Positions 1 to 6,849 of a stretch of DNA of 6,849 bases are shown here, one piece after another. A program made the position numbers and the translations under genes. Positions within the stretch are counted from its first letter, which is position 1, and each line of letters opens with the position of its first letter. The stretch spans positions 1 through 6,849 of IMG/VR virus record IMGVR_UViG_2617270976_000007; one strand, given 5' to 3'. This stretch comes from a virus. Taxonomy: Duplodnaviria > Heunggongvirae > Uroviricota > Caudoviricetes. The notes under the pieces were generated by a model. That model ran no database searches. It saw only the letters and a program-made list of their open reading frames with translations, and was not told where the DNA came from.

Positions 1-237
1 CTGTCACCCTTTGACGTGGTGATATGGATGACGGATGGCTGGCCGCTGTATGAATCCCGCCTGAAGGGAAAGCTGCACGTAATCAGCAAGCGATATACGC
101 AGCGAATTGAGCGGCATAACCTGAATCTGAGGCAGCACCTGGCACGGCTGGGACGGAAGTCGCTGTCGTTCTCAAAATCGGTGGAGCTGCATGACAAAGT
201 CATCGGGCATTATCTGAACATAAAACACTATCAATAA
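1..237 (+). CDS. insB: IS1 transposase InsB (InsAB' C-terminal portion), 5'-partial; start lies outside the window
   Basis: Frame-1 translation from base 1 reads [78 protein letters not shown], then stop TAA at 235-237. This matches the IS1 InsB C-terminus; the ORF-track Met at 16 is internal. Confidence 0.9.
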
Positions 238-252
238 GTTGGAGTCATTACC
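1..252 (+). mobile_element. IS1 insertion sequence, right-hand portion (window starts inside the element); ends with the IS1 terminal inverted repeat at 230-252
   Basis: Frame 1 encodes the C-terminal part of IS1 InsB; the element ends with ...cactatcaataagttggagtcattacc, the IS1 right end as I remember it. Bases 1-252 are the exact reverse complement of 6570-6821. Confidence 0.93.
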
Positions 253-278
253 TCATTTTTCAGATGGTGGAAAGAACC

Positions 279-2132
279 ATGGCATTTAAACACTATGATG
301 TTGTCAGGGCGGCGTCGCCGTCAGATCTTGCGGAAAAGCTGACACATAAACTGAAAGAGGGCTGGCAGCCGTTTGGTAGTCCGGTGGCCATAACCCCTTA
401 TACCCTGATGCAGGCGATTGCAGCAGAAGGTGATGTGGTCGTCAGTGGTGCAACTGAGCCGGAGTGGTACTACGTCATCGTACTGGCCGGGCAGTCCAAT
501 GCCATGGCTTACGGTGAAGGGCTTCCGCTTCCGGATTCATACGATGCGCCCCATCCGCGCATTAAGCAACTGGCCCGTCGTAACACAGTGACTCCCGGTG
601 GTGAAGTATGCGTATTTAACGACATCATTCCTGCTGACCATTGTCTGCATGATGTTCAGGATATGAGTACGATTAACCATCCCCGGGCTGACCTGAGCAA
701 AGGGCAGTACGGCTGTGTCGGCCAGGGCTTACATATTGCCAAAAAAATGCTTCCGTATATCCCTAATAATGCGGGGATCCTGCTGGTACCATGCTGTCGT
801 GGTGGTTCGGCATTCACCCAGGGCACGGAGGGGACATTCAGCGAGTCCACGGGGGCCAGTCAGGATTCGGCTCGCTGGGGAGTGGGTAAGCCGTTATATC
901 AGGATCTGCTTTTCCGCACGAAGGCAGCATTGCAGAAAAACCCGAAAAACGTTTTGCTGGCGATATGCTGGATGCAGGGGGAATTCGATATGACGAATGC
1001 CAGTTACGCCCAGCAGCCAGCAGCATTTCTTGCAATGGTACAGCAGTTCCGTGCTGACCTTGCCGGGCTGGCAGCGCAGTGTCACGGTGGAAGTCCGGCA
1101 TCAGTCCCCTGGATTTGTGGCGACACGACATACGCGTGGAAACAAGAACACGGTACGCAATATGAAGTGGTATATGGTGCATATAAAGGTAAAGAATCCC
1201 AGCAGATTTATTTTGTTCCCTTTATGACCGATGGTAGCGGAGTTAATACACCGACAAACAACCCGTCAGAAGATCCTGATATTGCCGGGTCTGGTTATTA
1301 CGGTTCGGCATCCCGAACGAACAAAAACTGGGTATCATCAAATCGCCCGACGCATTTCAGCTCATGGGCGCGTCGTGGCATTATTCCCGATCGTATGGCA
1401 ACTGCTATTCTGAACGTAGCCGGGCGCACCTCAGCCTTCATCAGTGGTAAGGCACCGGAAATCAAACCCTCGCCCGGCGGCGACACGCCATCGGTGCCGT
1501 CTGAAGATGCATCCGTACGCACAATCTCCCTGTTGCCGACAGCCGGAGATGCTGCTGCGCAGGGCTGGAGCATTAAGAATGGCGGAATTCAGTTGTCAGA
1601 TGGTGTATTTAAGATCACCAAGCAGAGCAATAAAGCCTGGTCCCTGACGCGCCCGGTGGATGACGCAGTCTCCCTGCTGACACGGGGTGGCAGACTGAGC
1701 TGTAAGTTTCGACTGTCAGGCGCACTGACCAACAACCAGTTCGGTCTGGGAATTTATCTGTATACCGATGTAGCGTTACCTGACGTCGTGGCGATGACCG
1801 GGACTGGTAACCCGTTCCTGATGTCGTTCTTCACCCAGACCACAGACGGCAAACTGAATCTGATGCATCACAAGAAAGCCGGAAACACAAAGTTGGGCGA
1901 GTTCGGGAATTACAGTAACGACTGGCAGACGCTGGAGCTGGTGTTCACCGCCGGCAGTGCCACGGTTACTCCGAAACTGAATGGAGTGGCTGGCCCGGCA
2001 TTCCAGGTCATAAAAGACAGTCTGACAGTGGGACTAAATGCACTGACGCTGACGGATATTACCAAAAATGCAACGTATGGCGTTGAGATAGAAAGTCTGG
2101 TGCTGGAGATAAATGCACCGGCATCATCATAA
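279..2132 (+). CDS. nanS-p: Prophage sialate O-acetylesterase of the NanS/YjhS family (NanS-p-like): N-terminal extension, SGNH/SASA esterase core, C-terminal beta-rich putative carbohydrate-binding domain
   Basis: Long ORF with stop TAA at 2130-2132. The GQSN serine block ([19 protein letters not shown]) and following blocks ([56 protein letters not shown]) match the NanS esterase family as I recall it. About 220 extra C-terminal residues fit the phage-borne NanS-p architecture. Start is uncertain: ATG 279 (GGTGGA 7 nt upstream) or in-frame ATG 264. Confidence 0.8.
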
Positions 2133-2217
2133 AAAGTGAGCCAGTCAAATGGAAGGTATCGTTAAACTCACCGGTAGTGTCAGTGGGTCGTCTGAGACGC
2201 CTGCATGAGTTATCAGA

Positions 2218-2249
2218 GCCATCAGTACTTAACTGGTGGCTTTTTTATT
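2218..2249 (+). terminator. Putative rho-independent terminator between the esterase gene and the holin
   Basis: Stem GCCATCAG (2218-2225), loop TACTTAA, stem CTGGTGGC (2233-2240; 8 bp with one G-U pair), followed by TTTTTTATT (2241-2249). Confidence 0.55.
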
Positions 2250-2281
2250 GTTGTCAGCTTCCGGATAACGGGAGACGGGGT

Positions 2282-2497
2282 ATGTACCAGATGGAAAAAA
2301 TCACAACAGGTGTGTCATACACCACGTCAGCGGTGGGAACGGGCTACTGGTTCCTGCAGTTGCTGGACAGGGTTTCCCCGTCTCAGTGGGCGGCAATAGG
2401 CGTGCTGGGGAGTCTGCTGTTTGGGCTGCTGACATATCTGACTAACCTGTATTTCAAAATCAGAGAGGACCGTCGTAAGGCTGCACGGGGAGAGTAA
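2282..2497 (+). CDS. S: Class II holin (pinholin) of the phage 21 S21 / EssQ type, 71 aa, with dual-start motif
   Basis: [71 protein letters not shown] has two hydrophobic segments and the charged C-terminus [13 protein letters not shown] typical of S21-like pinholins. Met1 and Met4 give the holin/antiholin dual start. GGAG lies upstream. The 106-aa ORF-track version (2177) runs through the terminator and is not the real start. Confidence 0.9.
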
Positions 2498-2501
2498 TTC
2501 A

Positions 2502-2846
2502 ATGACTCAAAACTATGAACTGATTGTGAAAGGGATCCGCAATTTTGAGAATAAAGTTACGGTAACTTTAGCGTTACGGGACAAAAAACGCTTTGACGGT
2601 GAAATTTTTGACCTGGACATCTCGCTGGACCGTGTTGAAGGTGCCGCGCTGGAGTTTTATGAGGCAGCAGCCAGAAGGAGCATCAGACAGGTCTTCCTGG
2701 ATGTTGCTGCCGGGTTATGTGAAGGGGATGAGCAGTCGCCGGAAAAGCGCCCCGTAATTTTAGAGGCGCAGGATGTGTTGATAACCTACAGAGGAAAACT
2801 ACCGGGAATAATTACGGGTTCTCTGAAGAGTCCGCCGAAATGGTAA
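2502..2846 (+). CDS. Small conserved lysis-cassette protein, 114 aa, at the position ydfR (DUF1327) occupies between essQ and rrrQ in Qin-type prophages; function unknown
   Basis: ATG at 2502 is 4 nt after the holin stop, with GGAGAG 7 nt upstream, which implies translational coupling. Placement between pinholin and SAR endolysin matches the essQ-ydfR-rrrQ order. Sequence identity to YdfR was not verified. Confidence 0.65.
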   Translation: MTQNYELIVKGIRNFENKVTVTLALRDKKRFDGEIFDLDISLDRVEGAALEFYEAAARRSIRQVFLDVAAGLCEGDEQSPEKRPVILEAQDVLITYRGKLPGIITGSLKSPPKW

Positions 2847-3084
2847 TTTTACCAGCATATTTTTCATCCAGTAATACAGCAAGCCGCCTGAAAGAGTCTT
2901 GTTGTTCCTGAGACCATTTGGGATTGCATGATTCAAACTGGATTGATGCCAGCGTTGATTGCATCTGTTCCCTTGGAATTGAGAATGCCAGATATGAGAA
3001 GGCGACGGTAAGGGTATTCACGTCTTCCCGAAGCCTAGAAATGCTGTCGAGCAACTCCTGTAGAGAAATGGTGTTATTGTCCAT
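2812..3084 (-). CDS. Hypothetical 90-aa protein encoded antisense inside the lysis cassette; its 3' end overlaps the previous gene by 35 bp
   Basis: Minus-strand ATG at 3084 is preceded by GAGGA with 6-nt spacing (ATCATGAGGATTATTTATG). Translation MDNNTISLQELLDSISRLREDVNTLTVAFSYLAFSIPREQMQSTLASIQFESCNPKWSQEQQDSFRRLAVLLDEKYAGKITISADSSENP is helix-like with a balanced composition. The segment is AT-richer than the flanking lysis genes. No homolog recognised. Confidence 0.4.
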   Translation of the reverse strand: MDNNTISLQELLDSISRLREDVNTLTVAFSYLAFSIPREQMQSTLASIQFESCNPKWSQEQQDSFRRLAVLLDEKYAGKITISADSSENP

Positions 3085-3189
3085 AAATAATCCTCATGAT
3101 TGTATTGACCTGTTAGCAGCCTGAGGCAACAGGCTGGAACTGATAAACATATCCAGGGCTCAGAAACCGATAAATCCTGATAAATATCC

Positions 3190-3735
3190 ATGAACGCAAA
3201 AATCAGATACGGCCTGTCGGCTGCCGTTCTGGCGCTGATTGCCGCTGGTGCGCCTGCGCCTGACATTCTCGACCAGTTTCTGGATGAAAAGGAAGGTAAC
3301 CACACCACGGCATACCGTGATGGTGCGGGTATCTGGACCATCTGCCGCGGTGCCATCCTGGTGGATGGCAAACCTGTCGTTCCGGGCATGAAGTTGTCGA
3401 AGGAAAAATGCGACCGGGTTACTGACATGCAGATGCGTCAGCGTGATGTTGCTGCGCTCGATGCAAAATACACGAAGGAGTTAGCTGATGCGAAAGCTGA
3501 AAATGAAACTCTTCGCGCTGACGTTGCCGCTGGTCGTAAGCGCCTGCGTATCAACGCCACCTGTCCAGGTCCCGTGCGTGAAGCCACCGGCACCGCCCGC
3601 GTGGATAATGCAACCGGCCCCCAACTGGCAGACACCGTTACACGGGATTATTTCACCCTCAGAGAGCGGCTGATGACGATGCAGAAGCAACTGGAAGGGG
3701 CGCAGGAATATATCCGTACTCAGTGCCTGAAATAA
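3190..3735 (+). pseudogene. In-frame fusion of SAR endolysin R (RrrQ-like, N-terminal ~76 aa) to the i-spanin Rz C-terminal periplasmic domain; deletion junction near 3419-3424
   Basis: Residues 1-76 (MNAKIRYGLSAAVLALIAAGAPAPDILDQFLDEKEGNHTTAYRDGAGIWTICRGA...KEKCDRV) match the RrrQ/R21-type lysozyme N-terminus, including the SAR-like Ala/Gly-rich segment and the E-x8-D-x5-T catalytic spacing. From TDMQMRQRDVAALDAKYTKELADAKAEN onward the protein matches lambda Rz up to its C-terminus ...LEGAQEYIRTQCLK. The lysozyme C-terminal lobe and the Rz N-terminal membrane anchor are missing. Confidence 0.8.
3488..3673 (+). CDS. Rz1: Rz1 outer-membrane lipoprotein (o-spanin), embedded in the +1 frame of the Rz portion
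   Basis: MRKLKMKLFALTLPLVVSACVSTPPVQVPCVKPPAPPAWIMQPAPNWQTPLHGIISPSESG has a signal peptide with lipobox VSAC and the proline-rich mature region, closely like lambda Rz1. AAGGAG sits 7 nt upstream of the ATG. Confidence 0.85.
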   Translation: MRKLKMKLFALTLPLVVSACVSTPPVQVPCVKPPAPPAWIMQPAPNWQTPLHGIISPSESG

Positions 3736-4085
3736 GTTTTGTTGATGCGCCGTATCGTCGCTGTATTCCCTCATTAACAGAGACCGCAGCCCGACAGGGA
3801 GACTCCTCTGCGCGAGTGTGCGGGGATAATCAAAAACGATACACACCGGGGTTTACCGCGTTAACGGAGCGCGGCGTTGTCCCCTCATAGTCGCCTGTCC
3901 GGTGCGATGGTGGAAGAAACCGGATGTTTATCACTATTAATTGATGACACAGAAATGGATTCATTGAATTTCAGCACGTTTTTGTATTCGTGTTATTGAA
4001 CATCTGTTTATTTTACTTTTAACATATTGATAATAAAAAGAGCTGTAAATCTTTAGATGAGTCGATTTTGTCCGGGGAAGTTCAA

Positions 4086-4226
4086 ATGGATTTTATGCTG
4101 ACGGTTTCTGGTGTGGTTATCCTGTCCATTGCTTATACTGCAGATAAATATGGCTGCCATTTGTTATCACGTATTGGCGCTTATTGTTCGTTGATGCTGA
4201 TTTTCTCGTCGCTTTTTTTTGAGTAA
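4086..4226 (+). CDS. Hypothetical 46-aa hydrophobic small protein (possible membrane peptide); not in the supplied ORF track because it is shorter than 60 aa
   Basis: ATG 4086 with GGGGAAG 5 nt upstream; translation MDFMLTVSGVVILSIAYTADKYGCHLLSRIGAYCSLMLIFSSLFFE, stop TAA 4224-4226. Possible sigma70-like promoter TTGAAC (3996-4001), 18-nt spacer, TAACAT (4020-4025). Lies in an AT-rich stretch between Rz and the cos-proximal gene. Confidence 0.3.
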   Translation: MDFMLTVSGVVILSIAYTADKYGCHLLSRIGAYCSLMLIFSSLFFE

Positions 4227-4358
4227 GTTATATTAATTATAACAAATAATTTTCTGTGTTATTTTTTCAGGCTATCCCGTCAGAGGGGAAGCCTGTACTG
4301 CCGGGGAGCGAATGGAAAACTGATGTGTCCGGTAACTGCGTGTTCTGTGAACACCATG

Positions 4359-4544
4359 TTACTTAATTATGTAATTCATACCCGAACTCTCTGTTGACAG
4401 CCTTCTTCTGCAGGCTTCAATAACCCACGCTGAAAAGTTTCCTGAACCTTTCAGATCAAGAGCGATGTTAATTTGTTCAATCATCTGGTTTGGAAATCGG
4501 ATGTTGCGGGTTGTTGTTCTGCGGGTTCTGTTCTTTGATGACAT
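4359..4544 (-). CDS. Small cos-proximal protein with predicted ribbon-helix-helix fold, homolog of the lambda right-end small ORF
   Basis: Minus-strand ATG at 4544 with GGGGA 6 nt upstream. MSSKNRTRRTTTRNIRFPNQMIEQINIALDLKGSGNFSAWVIEACRRRL... closely resembles, from memory, the small ORF on the complementary strand near lambda's right end (MSTKNRTRRTTTRNIRFPNQMIEQINIAL...FSAWVIEACRRRL). The beta-strand/helix/loop/helix layout fits an RHH DNA-binding fold. Confidence 0.7.
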   Translation of the reverse strand: MSSKNRTRRTTTRNIRFPNQMIEQINIALDLKGSGNFSAWVIEACRRRLSTESSGMNYIIK

Positions 4545-4721
4545 AATGTTTCCCCATATTCAGTGTTGCTGATTTGTATTATCTGAAGTTGCTTTTACGT
4601 TAATTTGATGCAGATCAATTAATACGATACCTGCGTCATAATTGATTATTTCTCGTGGTTTGATGGCGTACACACATGTTGTGATAAACCTTATATAGAT
4701 GATAATCATTATCATTTTCGT

Positions 4722-4915
4722 GGGTCCTTTCCGGCGATCCGACCGGTTACGGGGCGGCGACCTCGCGGGTTTTCGCTATTTATGAAAATTTTTAGGGAAA
4801 AATCAGATCCGTTCTTCTTCTTTTTAACTGATTGATTATCAATAGAATTTTAAAAATATAAAAGGATCTGACAAAGGCTGTTTTTGTTAGAAAACGCCAT
4901 TTTCAGATCCTTTCT
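4722..4915 (+). other. Lambda-type cos site: cosQ-proximal sequence, cosN (12-nt cohesive end GGGCGGCGACCT at 4752-4763) and cosB with three terminase-binding repeats
   Basis: GGGTCCTTTCCGGCGATCCGACCGGTTACG|GGGCGGCGACCTCGCGGGTTTTCGCTATTTATGAAAATTT is near-identical to the lambda genome-end junction. Three CAGATCC elements (about 4806-4812 direct, 4863-4869 inverted, 4904-4910 direct) have the orientation pattern of lambda R3/R2/R1, immediately upstream of the small terminase gene. Confidence 0.85.
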
Positions 4916-4932
4916 GGTTCCCGGGGGAGTGT

Positions 4933-5481
4933 ATGAACGTCAATAAGAAAAAACTGGCCGATATTTTTGGCGTTGATGTCAGGACCATCACCGCCTGGCA
5001 GAGTCAGGGGTTACCACTAGTTTCTGGTGGAGGGAAAGGGACTGAATCAGTTTTTGATACAACTGCTGCCATTCAGTGGTATGCGCAGAGGGAAGCTGAT
5101 ATTGAAAACGAAAAACTCCGTAAAGAGATCGAGGATTTGAGGGCTGCCAGCGAATCAGACCTTCAGCCCGGCACCATTGATTACGAACGTTACCGACTGA
5201 TGAAGGCACAGGCCGATGCACAGGAGCTGAAAAATGCTCGTGAGGAAGGCCTTGTCCTCGAGACGGAGTTATTTACCTACATCTTTCAGCGAGTGGCACA
5301 GAATATATCAGGGATCCTTGTCCGTGTCCCTCAGACACTGCAGCGTAAATACCCTGATATATCACCCGTACATCTTGATGCTGTGAAAACTGAAATCGCG
5401 AAAGCATCCGATGTGGCTTCTGAAGCCGGTGAGAATGTGCGCAGGTGGATTGATGATTTCAGACGAACTGAGGGCGGCTAA
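4933..5481 (+). CDS. nu1: Terminase small subunit (lambda Nu1 / NohA family), apparently full length, 182 aa
   Basis: [42 protein letters not shown]...[48 protein letters not shown] aligns along its length with lambda Nu1 (MEVNKKQLADIFGASIRTIQNWQEQGMPVLRGGGKG...). It sits directly downstream of cosB and its stop (TAA 5479-5481) overlaps the start of the next gene. Confidence 0.9.
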
Positions 5482-6103
5482 TTCTGCAGGAGCGATAGCA
5501 ACCGGCCTCCTTGCGCTAAAAATTCCTGTCCCTCTGACGACAGTTCAGTGGGCAGATCGACATTATTACCTTCCGAAAGAGTCATCTTACACCCCGGGGC
5601 GGTGGGAAACACTGCCGTTTCAGGTTGCCATCATGAACAGCATGGGGAATGACCGGATCCGCACTGTTAATCTGATTAAATCTGCCCGTGTTGGTTATAC
5701 AAAGATGTTGCTGGGAGTGGAGGCTTATTTTATTGAGCATAAATCACGCAACAGCCTTCTTTTCCAGCCCACGGATTCTGCTGCTGAAGATTTTATGAAA
5801 TCTCATGTGGAACCCACGATCAGGGATGTGCCGGTTTTACTCGATCTTGCACCGTGGTTTGGGCGTAAACATCGTGATAATACCCTCACGCTGAAACGTT
5901 TTTCATCGGGCGTGGGCTTCTGGTGCCTGGGCGGGGCTGCCGCTAAAAACTACCGTGAAAAATCCGTGGACGTGGTCTGCTATGACGAACTTTCCTCGTT
6001 CGAACCGGATGTCGAAAAAGAGGGTTCGCCAACCCTGCTTGGGGATAAACGTATTGAGGGCTCTGTATGGCCCAAGCCGCCGTGCAGGAGAACCAGCGAG
6101 TGA
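5453..6103 (+). pseudogene. A: Terminase large subunit (lambda gpA family), N-terminal ~216 aa only; truncated by an internal deletion with the junction near 6077-6080
   Basis: ...VQWADRHYYLPKESSYTPGRWETLPFQVAIMNSMGNDRIRTVNLIKSARVGYTKMLLGVEAYFIEHK...GFWCLGGAAAKNYREKSVDVVCYDELSSFEPDVEKEGSPTLLGDKRIEGSVWPK matches lambda gpA residues ~35-205. Similarity ends after GSVWPK and the frame stops at 6101-6103, whereas full gpA is about 640 aa. Start codon is uncertain (5453, 5435 or 5411, all in frame). Confidence 0.85.
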
Positions 6104-6569
6104 TGGGGATCCTGACATGCCAGGAAGCGAAAGGACGTGAACAGCTTGCCACGATGCTGGCAGGGCAACAGGGCATGAGCGTTGAACAGGCCCGGGCGAT
6201 TCTGGCCGCGGCGGCACCGCAGCAGCCGGTGGCATCCGCGCAGAGTGAAGCCGATCGCATTATGGCGTGTGAAGAAGCGAACGGTCGTGAACAACTGGCA
6301 GTAACGCTGGCGGCGATGCCGGAGATGACGGTGGAAAAAGCCCGCCCGATCCTGGCTGCTTCACCGCAGGCGAATGCCGGACCATCACTCCGTGATCAGA
6401 TCATGGCCCTGGATGAGGCAAAAGGGGCTGAGGCGCAGGCTGAACAGCTGGCTGCCTGCCCGGGAATGACCGTGGAGAGCGCCCGGGCTGTGCTGGCTGC
6501 GGGATCAGGTAAGGCAGAACCGGTCTCTGCATCCACAACCGCCCTGTTTGAACATTTCATGGCGAACCA
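6079..6569 (+). pseudogene. Fragment of a repeat-containing phage protein (three ~45-aa tandem repeats; possibly the C-terminal region of a head protease/scaffold-type morphogenesis protein); 5' end set by the deletion junction, 3' end interrupted by IS1
   Basis: Frame-1 translation contains three related units: RVMGILTCQEAKGREQLATMLAG..MSVEQARAILAAA; RIMACEEANGREQLAVTLAAMPEMTVEKARPILAAS; QIMALDEAKGAEAQAEQLAACPGMTVESARAVLAAG. The last codons (VMTPTY, stop) are IS1-derived, so the native C-terminus is lost at 6570. Functional assignment is a guess. Confidence 0.4.
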
Positions 6570-6849
6570 GGTAATGACTCCAACTTATTGATAGTGTTTT
6601 ATGTTCAGATAATGCCCGATGACTTTGTCATGCAGCTCCACCGATTTTGAGAACGACAGCGACTTCCGTCCCAGCCGTGCCAGGTGCTGCCTCAGATTCA
6701 GGTTATGCCGCTCAATTCGCTGCGTATATCGCTTGCTGATTACGTGCAGCTTTCCCTTCAGGCGGGATTCATACAGCGGCCAGCCATCCGTCATCCATAT
6801 CACCACGTCAAAGGGTGACAGCAGGCTCATAAGACGCCCCAGCGTCGCC
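6570..6849 (-). mobile_element. IS1 insertion sequence, right-hand portion in reverse orientation (extends beyond the window); terminal inverted repeat GGTAATGACTCCAACTTATTGAT at 6570-6592
   Basis: 6570-6821 is the exact reverse complement of 1-252; starts with the canonical IS1 terminal repeat and encodes InsB on the minus strand. Confidence 0.93.
6585..6849 (-). CDS. insB: IS1 transposase InsB (InsAB' C-terminal portion), 5'-partial; coding continues beyond the window edge
   Basis: Minus-strand translation ...[87 protein letters not shown], stop at 6585-6587; identical to the InsB fragment at 1-237. Confidence 0.9.

Follow-up and report, generated by a model that had tools for sequence, protein, structure and literature searches.

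Lambdoid phages carry morons, accessory cassettes reportedly described by Hendrix and colleagues, with lambda bor and lom and the HK97 morons among the examples. Bacteria also make inner-membrane microproteins of at most 50 amino acids (aa), such as AcrZ, MgrB, SgrT, KdpF, and MgtS, which bind larger membrane proteins. Here, we investigated a 6,849-nucleotide (nt) stretch of DNA from IMG/VR record IMGVR_UViG_2617270976_000007 (positions 1–6,849; hereafter, the window), which is a decayed lambdoid (Stx-phage-like) prophage fragment of Escherichia coli. An AT-rich cassette at 3926–4409, between the lysis genes and cos, holds an open reading frame (ORF) of 46 codons. The best reading of this locus, at a probability of roughly 0.55, is a moron cassette with a genuine orphan gene that encodes an inner-membrane microprotein.

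The cassette resembles morons in several respects. Some phages have it and others lack it at one fixed site flanked by conserved phage genes, and its base composition is very different from that of its neighbors. The late region close to cos, in which it lies, is a known hot spot. Its small cargo gene is preceded by a conserved block of its own, which is a promoter candidate only. DLP12 and Qin carry other cargo between Rz and ylcI/ynfO. Unlike morons, the cassette has no canonical terminator for its ORF, and the cargo matches no known family. Like the ORF, the gene for the Bor lipoprotein (PF06291) is an accessory gene between Rz and cos of a lambdoid prophage. However, the ORF product has neither sequence similarity to Bor nor a lipobox, and lambda bor is on the opposite strand whereas the cassette cargo is on the late-gene strand. 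The slots also differ, with lambda bor upstream of a conserved linker and the cassette downstream of it.

The 46-aa peptide is similar to AcrZ, MgrB, SgrT, KdpF, and MgtS in size and strong hydrophobicity and is too small for an enzymatic domain. It likewise has a conserved short polar motif adjoining its predicted membrane segments, but shows no homology to these proteins. Most such microproteins have one transmembrane helix, whereas the peptide described here has two predicted helices, is prophage-borne, and is restricted to E. coli.

RESULTS

An AT-rich cassette in the second variable slot before cos

The original prediction for this region, made from the sequence, described it as AT-rich and variable, with no bor-like lipoprotein gene, and all of this holds. 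GC content is 26–43% across the cassette and 26–32% within ~3950–4300, compared with 50–64% in Rz and the 190-nt linker that follows it. Phage BP-4795 aligns with the window to 3924 and lambda to 3861; both alignments resume at 4410, and the DNA in between is unrelated to the cassette. No ORF in 3736–4358 matches Bor or any other Pfam family, in a scan that took in the ORFs of 3723–4366 at E values up to 1. The cassette contains a promoter-like block, the 46-aa ORF, a structured 3′ spacer, and the last 17 codons of a convergent ynfO-like gene. In the context of loci L005–L007, the shared part of the cassette ends near 4335. See Table 1 for the coordinates of the features.

The ORF was originally placed where lambda carries bor, but it lies one variable slot further to the right. 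Window 3419–3713 matches lambda Rz, 3746–3861 is homologous to lambda 46868–46981, downstream of bor (46459–46752), and 4410–4751 matches lambda 48169–48502, adjoining cos. Because the linker is homologous to lambda DNA downstream of bor, the bor slot corresponds to the Rz/linker junction at ~3736. This junction carries other inserts in other prophages, e.g., a 225-nt ORF in locus L004. The AT-rich cassette takes the place of lambda 46982–48168, the p78/p79 region. In lambdoid E. coli prophages, this is the second of the variable slots that separate the lysis genes from cos, and the cassette would be a mosaic accessory element, or moron, located there.

The cassette was found in 734 of 5,426 complete E. 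coli genomes (13.5%), where it nearly always separates the linker from ynfO. At least three packaging backbones carry it: Nu1/A-type, HNH plus TerS-type, and a TerL_nuclease-type without ynfO. Among phage records, it is present in only 2 of 50,697, and in only 2 of the 138 matching ones. It is absent from PLSDB plasmids and from GTDB species representatives (protein-mode search; two GTDB scans), and scans of viral and metagenome sequences returned only the same E. coli-type alleles.

The frame is conserved and carries an excess of synonymous changes

Our collection of 240 loci, in which some contigs occur twice, gave 39 cassette haplotypes, ~36 of them full. The frame is open in every haplotype covering the ORF (~36), including three diverged lineages, and thus withstands the test proposed with the original prediction, conservation of the frame in homologous DNA of related prophages. 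The L005-type allele has 89% amino acid identity to the window ORF, and the L003/L234-type allele, annotated as WP_000523825.1, has 71% amino acid and 77% nucleotide identity. Differences at the ORF ends consist of a change of ATG to GTG in one lineage, which is still a start codon, and of length changes in a T8 run. The T7/T8/T9 variation in this run (4213–4220) alters only the last one to five residues, giving C-termini ...LFFE, ...LFF, or ...LFLSKLY. The run is too near the stop codon for on/off switching.

Across codons 2–42, there were 17 synonymous and 16 nonsynonymous events, where 10.1 synonymous events were expected (P = 0.0086). In this test, each variable site and allele was counted once, and the expectation used the transition/transversion mix. 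The excess is found in the ORF frame only, with P ≥ 0.06 in the other five. The ratio of nonsynonymous to synonymous rates (dN/dS, Nei-Gojobori method, NG86) is 0.27–0.31 versus the diverged allele (0.31 versus L003), which is the lowest of the six frames. A 35-aa ORF on the minus strand (4053–4160) was rejected as a gene, as its frame shows no synonymous excess, and likewise the other four frames.

Alignment with L003 shows islands of constraint, since ORF codons 1–42 (81%) and a 35-nt block upstream (100%) stand out against a background of 59–67%; the segments neighboring the block are 67–77% identical. Indels are frequent in the 3′ flank, with none within codons 1–42 in credible sequences. 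The motif CGGGGAA is kept in L003 although the 5′ leader around it (4041–4085) is only 67% identical. The ribosome-binding site had been called reasonable, and GGGGAAG at 4074–4080 is indeed a fair Shine-Dalgarno sequence. Translation would start from the ATG at 4086 behind this GGGG Shine-Dalgarno. A 52-aa version of the ORF with a TTG start was rejected because its additional codons differ non-conservatively in L003 and the Shine-Dalgarno belongs to the ATG.

One internally frameshifted copy, L243 (IMGVR_UViG_2526164613_000025, ~9780–10300 on the reverse strand; E. coli DEC5B; protein variant P0010), accounts for 2 of the 240 loci. It has four scattered single-base insertions in 300 nt, some of them in non-coding DNA. 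In the one copy inspected, these look like sequencing error, and we discarded gene decay as the probable cause. Overall, it is quite likely that the ORF at 4086–4226 is a real protein-coding gene.

The original prediction also called the ORF unannotated, and of a kind that gene callers routinely miss. This is true of the two phage GenBank records that hold it, and the DDBJ phage records lack the call. It is not true of RefSeq, where the Prokaryotic Genome Annotation Pipeline (PGAP) calls exactly this ORF as WP_000347013.1.

Predicted features of the product

The 46-aa product, MDFMLTVSGVVILSIAYTADKYGCHLLSRIGAYCSLMLIFSSLFFE, is very hydrophobic, as originally described, with a grand average of hydropathy (GRAVY) of +1.11. 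Two hydrophobic segments of 16–17 residues, at residues 3–19 and 30–45, lie around a charged loop. Kyte-Doolittle 15-residue means reach 2.1 and 1.9 for the two segments, and 17-residue windows on the Wimley-White octanol scale go to −5.6 and −7.7 kcal/mol. AlphaFold2 predicts helices at residues 2–22 and 24–44 with a break at Gly23 (predicted local distance difference test score, pLDDT, 72; predicted template modeling score, pTM, 0.39). The two hydrophobic segments agree with the two predicted helices. No lipobox, basic C-terminal tail, or cleavable signal peptide could be read in the peptide. The pattern [LVI][ASTVI][GAS]C does not occur. The residues before Cys24, the sole candidate, are K-Y-G, and the L003 and L005 alleles have Tyr in place of this cysteine.

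Invariant positions of the alignment are concentrated in A19-D-K-Y-G..L-L-S-R-I-G-A-Y-C34 (residues 19–34) and in the second helix, whereas the first helix accepts V/I, S/A, S/F, Y/C, and T/N changes between alleles. The sole conserved charges, D20, K21, and R29, are all in the loop. By the positive-inside rule, the loop would be cytoplasmic and both termini periplasmic. The pattern G31xxx[S/A]35 would be a small-xxx-small helix-packing motif. The product may therefore be pictured as a helical hairpin in the inner membrane, with helix 1 at ~3–19, helix 2 at ~30–45, and the charged loop in the cytoplasm. With low certainty, we suggest that it binds a specific membrane protein via the loop, as membrane microproteins and exclusion factors do, and is not a generic pore-forming toxin. 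We prefer partner binding because the loop and G31xxx[S/A]35 are invariant while helix 1 tolerates conservative changes.

Candidate signals for transcription

The 35-nt block at 4006–4040 is always linked to the ORF, occurring with it in the same 734 genomes and in 94 viral contigs. Its conservation is what suggests a promoter. Two candidate hexamer pairs were found, TTGAAC (3996–4001) and TAACAT (4020–4025) with an 18-nt spacer, and TTTATT (4007–4012) and GATAAT (4029–4034) with a 16-nt spacer. Transcription from the cassette's own promoter in this block would start near 4032–4042 and would be active in the lysogen. Since the late promoter region has been replaced by IS1, only a promoter of its own could serve the ORF in the window prophage. 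A Fur box in the conserved block was considered and dismissed, as the best match (12/19) is at shuffle level.

In an intact phage, Q-antiterminated read-through from the late promoter pR′ would also cover the ORF. The ORF shares the strand of the late genes and there is no terminator between Rz and it, so such read-through is expected from established lambda late-operon biology. The ORF might thus be a late-expressed lysis accessory, co-transcribed with the S21-type holin, the signal-anchor-release (SAR) endolysin, and Rz/Rz1, that tunes lysis timing, e.g., via the pinholin or the spanin. Its place on the same strand just downstream of Rz/Rz1 would suit this role, and its two transmembrane-like helices resemble the layout of class II holins. 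However, the peptide has no Pfam or PHROG holin match, and its C-terminus (...IFSSLFFE) has no basic residues and thus no basic tail. The ORF also has its own conserved upstream block. Furthermore, many phages that share the holin/endolysin/Rz set are without the cassette (BP-4795 and ~136 of the 138 matching phage records), and it also occurs with different neighboring modules. Lastly, the ORF is intact in the window although R and Rz are destroyed. We therefore consider a lysis accessory unlikely.

Antisense RNA signals, whose search was proposed with the original prediction, gave little. A perfect extended −10 (TGTTATAAT) at 4244–4236 points antisense into the 3′ end of the ORF, would start an antisense RNA at ~4229, and sits in an AT palindrome, GTTATATTAATTATAAC. 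It is probably fortuitous, and the diverged alleles do not conserve it: L003 has TCTTATGAC instead, and L005–L007 have lost it through a 10-nt deletion. A search of Rfam at E values up to 1 returned only a spurious long non-coding RNA hit, outside the ORF, and no small RNA in the window. The 3′ spacer shows moderate structure (z = −2.2 and −3.1 for the two strands), with hairpins that are not conserved in L003.

These results bear on whether the peptide could be a membrane-depolarizing toxin of a type I toxin-antitoxin-like module, which an antisense RNA or the convergent ynfO transcript would restrain. Type I toxins (Hok/Gef, Ldr, TisB, Ibs, ShoB, ZorO) are likewise small hydrophobic peptides from horizontally acquired AT-rich regions. 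A 46-aa peptide of this hydrophobicity in an AT-rich prophage region, with an extended −10 directed against its 3′ end and a convergent gene 132 nt away with no strong terminator between, has the outline of such a module. But the antisense −10 is lost in the diverged alleles, ynfO is absent downstream in L005–L007, no Rfam antitoxin RNA was found, and the peptide matches no Hok/Gef, Ldr, TisB, Ibs, Fst, or other Pfam or PADLOC model. The charge distribution is also different, with the charges in the middle of the peptide and not in a terminal tail, and the strongest conservation is in the polar loop, not in overall hydrophobic character. A type I toxin-antitoxin arrangement is not supported by these sequence comparisons, and a depolarizing toxin seems improbable to us.

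Searches for homologs and published data

The peptide has no match in Pfam, NCBIfam, PHROGs, PADLOC, or the sequences of the PDB. A word-indexed search of 5.8 billion clustered proteins returned E. coli copies only. A profile HMMER search of 1.84 billion representatives recovered the peptide's own cluster and fragments. Apart from these, it gave only a few multi-stretch matches to longer proteins (169–1593 aa), which we presumed spurious without inspection. Protein-mode searches returned 2 phage records and no plasmid. Foldseek comparison of the AlphaFold2 model with BFVD gave no meaningful match. A literature search found no mention of WP_000347013 or of the peptide, and one on ynfO/ylcI/DUF3950 returned nothing useful. 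The ORF is an orphan restricted to E. coli prophages and is already catalogued as a “hypothetical protein.”

Is the frame fortuitous?

A fortuitous ORF has to be weighed against a genuine gene. The cassette would then be a non-coding spacer or have a regulatory role, as a promoter, as H-NS-bound DNA, or as the source of an RNA antisense into ynfO, and its near-identity among genomes would reflect recent phage-borne spread. A number of results weigh against a genuine gene. The length of the ORF is at chance level, as an ATG ORF of at least 46 codons occurs in 43% of dinucleotide-preserving shuffles of 3926–4358. Identity is at least 97% for most, indeed nearly all, of the 734 copies, and recent spread thus accounts for much of the apparent conservation. 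At the observed divergence, the chance of gaining no stop codon is ~0.4–0.7, and thus an open frame alone says little. The P value for selection is ~0.05 after six-frame correction and rests on 33 events in few lineages, and a cruder simulation of the amino acid changes between two alleles was not significant (P ~0.2–0.3). In addition, the best-conserved element is the 35-nt upstream block and not the ORF, the searches made found no homologs outside E. coli, and T-rich DNA, with T at 45% of second codon positions in the ORF, could account for the hydrophobicity.

The remaining points on this side concern expression and structure. The original prediction had pointed to promoter-like hexamers, but no upstream site on the plus strand reaches the 9/12 threshold of our scan; the two candidate pairs reach 8/12, and the region has about as many promoter-like sites as chance would give (4 found versus 3.5 expected from shuffles). 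Downstream of the ORF, no canonical terminator is present; the hairpins at 4340–4354 and 4268–4296 are weak and lack a proper U-tract, the latter having a T-run before it and not after. The AlphaFold2 model was built on a shallow alignment of three near-identical sequences. Lastly, the peptide and DNA strings are absent from the supplements of the papers searched on enterohemorrhagic E. coli (EHEC) ribosome profiling (Ribo-seq), transcription start sites (TSS), and the microproteome.

Nevertheless, a fortuitous frame fits poorly with a synonymous excess limited to one frame, and with an identity of 81% for the ORF next to 67% for the leader and 59% for the 3′ flank. The Shine-Dalgarno and the start codon are kept inside the diverged leader, indels are common in the 3′ flank but spare codons 1–42 of credible sequences, and the leader RNA is not unusually structured (z = +0.86). 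A fortuitous frame is therefore possible but doubtful in our view. A real gene for a small hydrophobic protein, as the original prediction had it, stands as the best reading on account of the conserved frame and the frame-specific synonymous excess; its bor position was off by one slot.

The decayed prophage and neighboring genes

The prophage remnant is flanked by IS1 ends at 1–253 and 6569–6821, which are inverted and 100% identical to each other. Coverage of the window is at most 85% in each of the 5,426 complete E. coli genomes, and this IS1-bounded arrangement is therefore absent from that collection. We compared the window with L001, an intact-looking prophage of avian pathogenic E. coli (APEC) O18. 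Window 491–3421 corresponds to L001 1–2932, and window 3419–4792 corresponds to L001 3684–5057. The 751-bp deletion between them joins a SAR-endolysin N-terminus in frame to an Rz C-terminus in the ORF at 3190–3735. With R and Rz fused in this way, the lysis cassette is dead, and the 46-aa ORF downstream is intact. It is the same as the major haplotype despite this fusion and a truncated terminase.

The linker between Rz and the cassette is present in 1,892 of the 5,426 genomes, with up to 9 copies each, and stays 92–96% identical even beside diverged cassettes. No reading frame in it shows a synonymous excess, indels occur, and its RNA fold is not unusually structured (z = −0.54). We read the linker as non-coding despite a 55-aa ORF across it (3723–3890). 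This ORF matches PHROG 6954, labeled “Rz-like spanin,” but has no coding signal and contains indels, and we rejected it as a likely annotation artifact. As the linker is between two variable slots, it may be a recombination linker.

The convergent YlcI/YnfO-family protein shows a ribbon-helix-helix-like pattern and a weak match to a HicB-like antitoxin PHROG (E = 0.012). The last 17 codons of its gene fall in the variable cassette, so the C-terminus is phage-dependent, with a length of 61 aa here and 75 aa in BP-4795. The N-terminal part (4410–4544) is common to BP-4795 and lambda 48169–48502. This lambda segment is homologous to the ynfO region, but no gene is annotated there in the lambda record examined.

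Two other ORFs were observed in the window. A 90-aa ORF at 2812–3084 on the minus strand lies opposite the lysis genes, between ydfR and the endolysin. It is the RefSeq hypothetical protein WP_000369850.1, has no Pfam match, and may be another small accessory gene. Directly after the truncated large-terminase gene, a 174-aa ORF at 6067–6591 has repeated “...GREQLA...MSVEQARAILAA...” units. This suggests a second internal deletion, joining the terminase to a head-assembly gene right before the right-hand IS1.

Table 1. Features of the window and nucleotide identity of cassette segments to the diverged allele L003
Feature	Position	Strand	Basis or match	Identity to L003
SASA/NanS-type esterase	264–2132			
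Class II holin (S21-type)	ends at 2497			
YdfR/DUF1327 gene	2502–2846			
R::Rz fusion, 181-aa ORF, Rz1 inside	3190–3735			
GC-rich non-coding linker between Rz and cassette	3736–3925		lambda homology, conservation, no coding signal	
AT-rich mosaic cassette, moron-like	3926–4409		boundaries from BP-4795 (3924/4410) and lambda (3861/4410)	
Cassette segment	3926–3974			67%
Cassette segment	3975–4005			77%
Invariant 35-nt block, candidate sigma-70 promoter core	4006–4040	+	35/35 identical, window versus L003	100%
Leader	4041–4085			67%
Shine-Dalgarno-like GGGGAAG, 6–8 nt before ATG	4074–4080	+	read from sequence	
46-aa ORF, ATG start, WP_000347013.1 hypothetical protein	4086–4226	+	ORF list, RefSeq annotation	
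ORF codons 1–42				81%
T8 homopolymer, codons 43–45	4213–4220	+	T7/T8/T9 variants among haplotypes	
3′ spacer				59%
Perfect extended −10 (TGTTATAAT), antisense into ORF 3′ end	4236–4244	−	read from sequence	
YlcI/YnfO-family (DUF3950) gene, 61 aa, convergent	4359–4544	−	Pfam DUF3950 9e-19, NCBIfam YlcI_YnfO_N, PHROG 949	
cos and Nu1-type small terminase	4933–5481			
Truncated large terminase	after small terminase			

Implications

The ORF is a well-delimited candidate and not a discovery, and the find is plausible but modest. More speculatively, and with a low likelihood, it could represent a new E. coli-restricted microprotein family of recent origin, possibly de novo from AT-rich moron DNA. 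Its product would be expressed from the prophage, bind a host inner-membrane protein through its loop, and give the lysogen a selectable trait. If this is true, such a trait, e.g., exclusion of superinfecting phage DNA entry or altered activity of a transporter or sensor, would explain the presence of the cassette in 13.5% of genomes and on several backbones.

Carriers of the cassette include O157:H7, other Shiga toxin-producing E. coli (STEC), APEC, and uropathogenic E. coli (UPEC) lineages. Phage exclusion, envelope physiology, or stress tolerance often depends on prophage membrane microproteins, which are under-studied. The cassette ORF is a compact test case for the origin and persistence of orphan genes in phage moron slots. 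If the gene is real and active, about 1 in 7 sequenced E. coli strains would make an uncharacterized prophage-encoded membrane microprotein.

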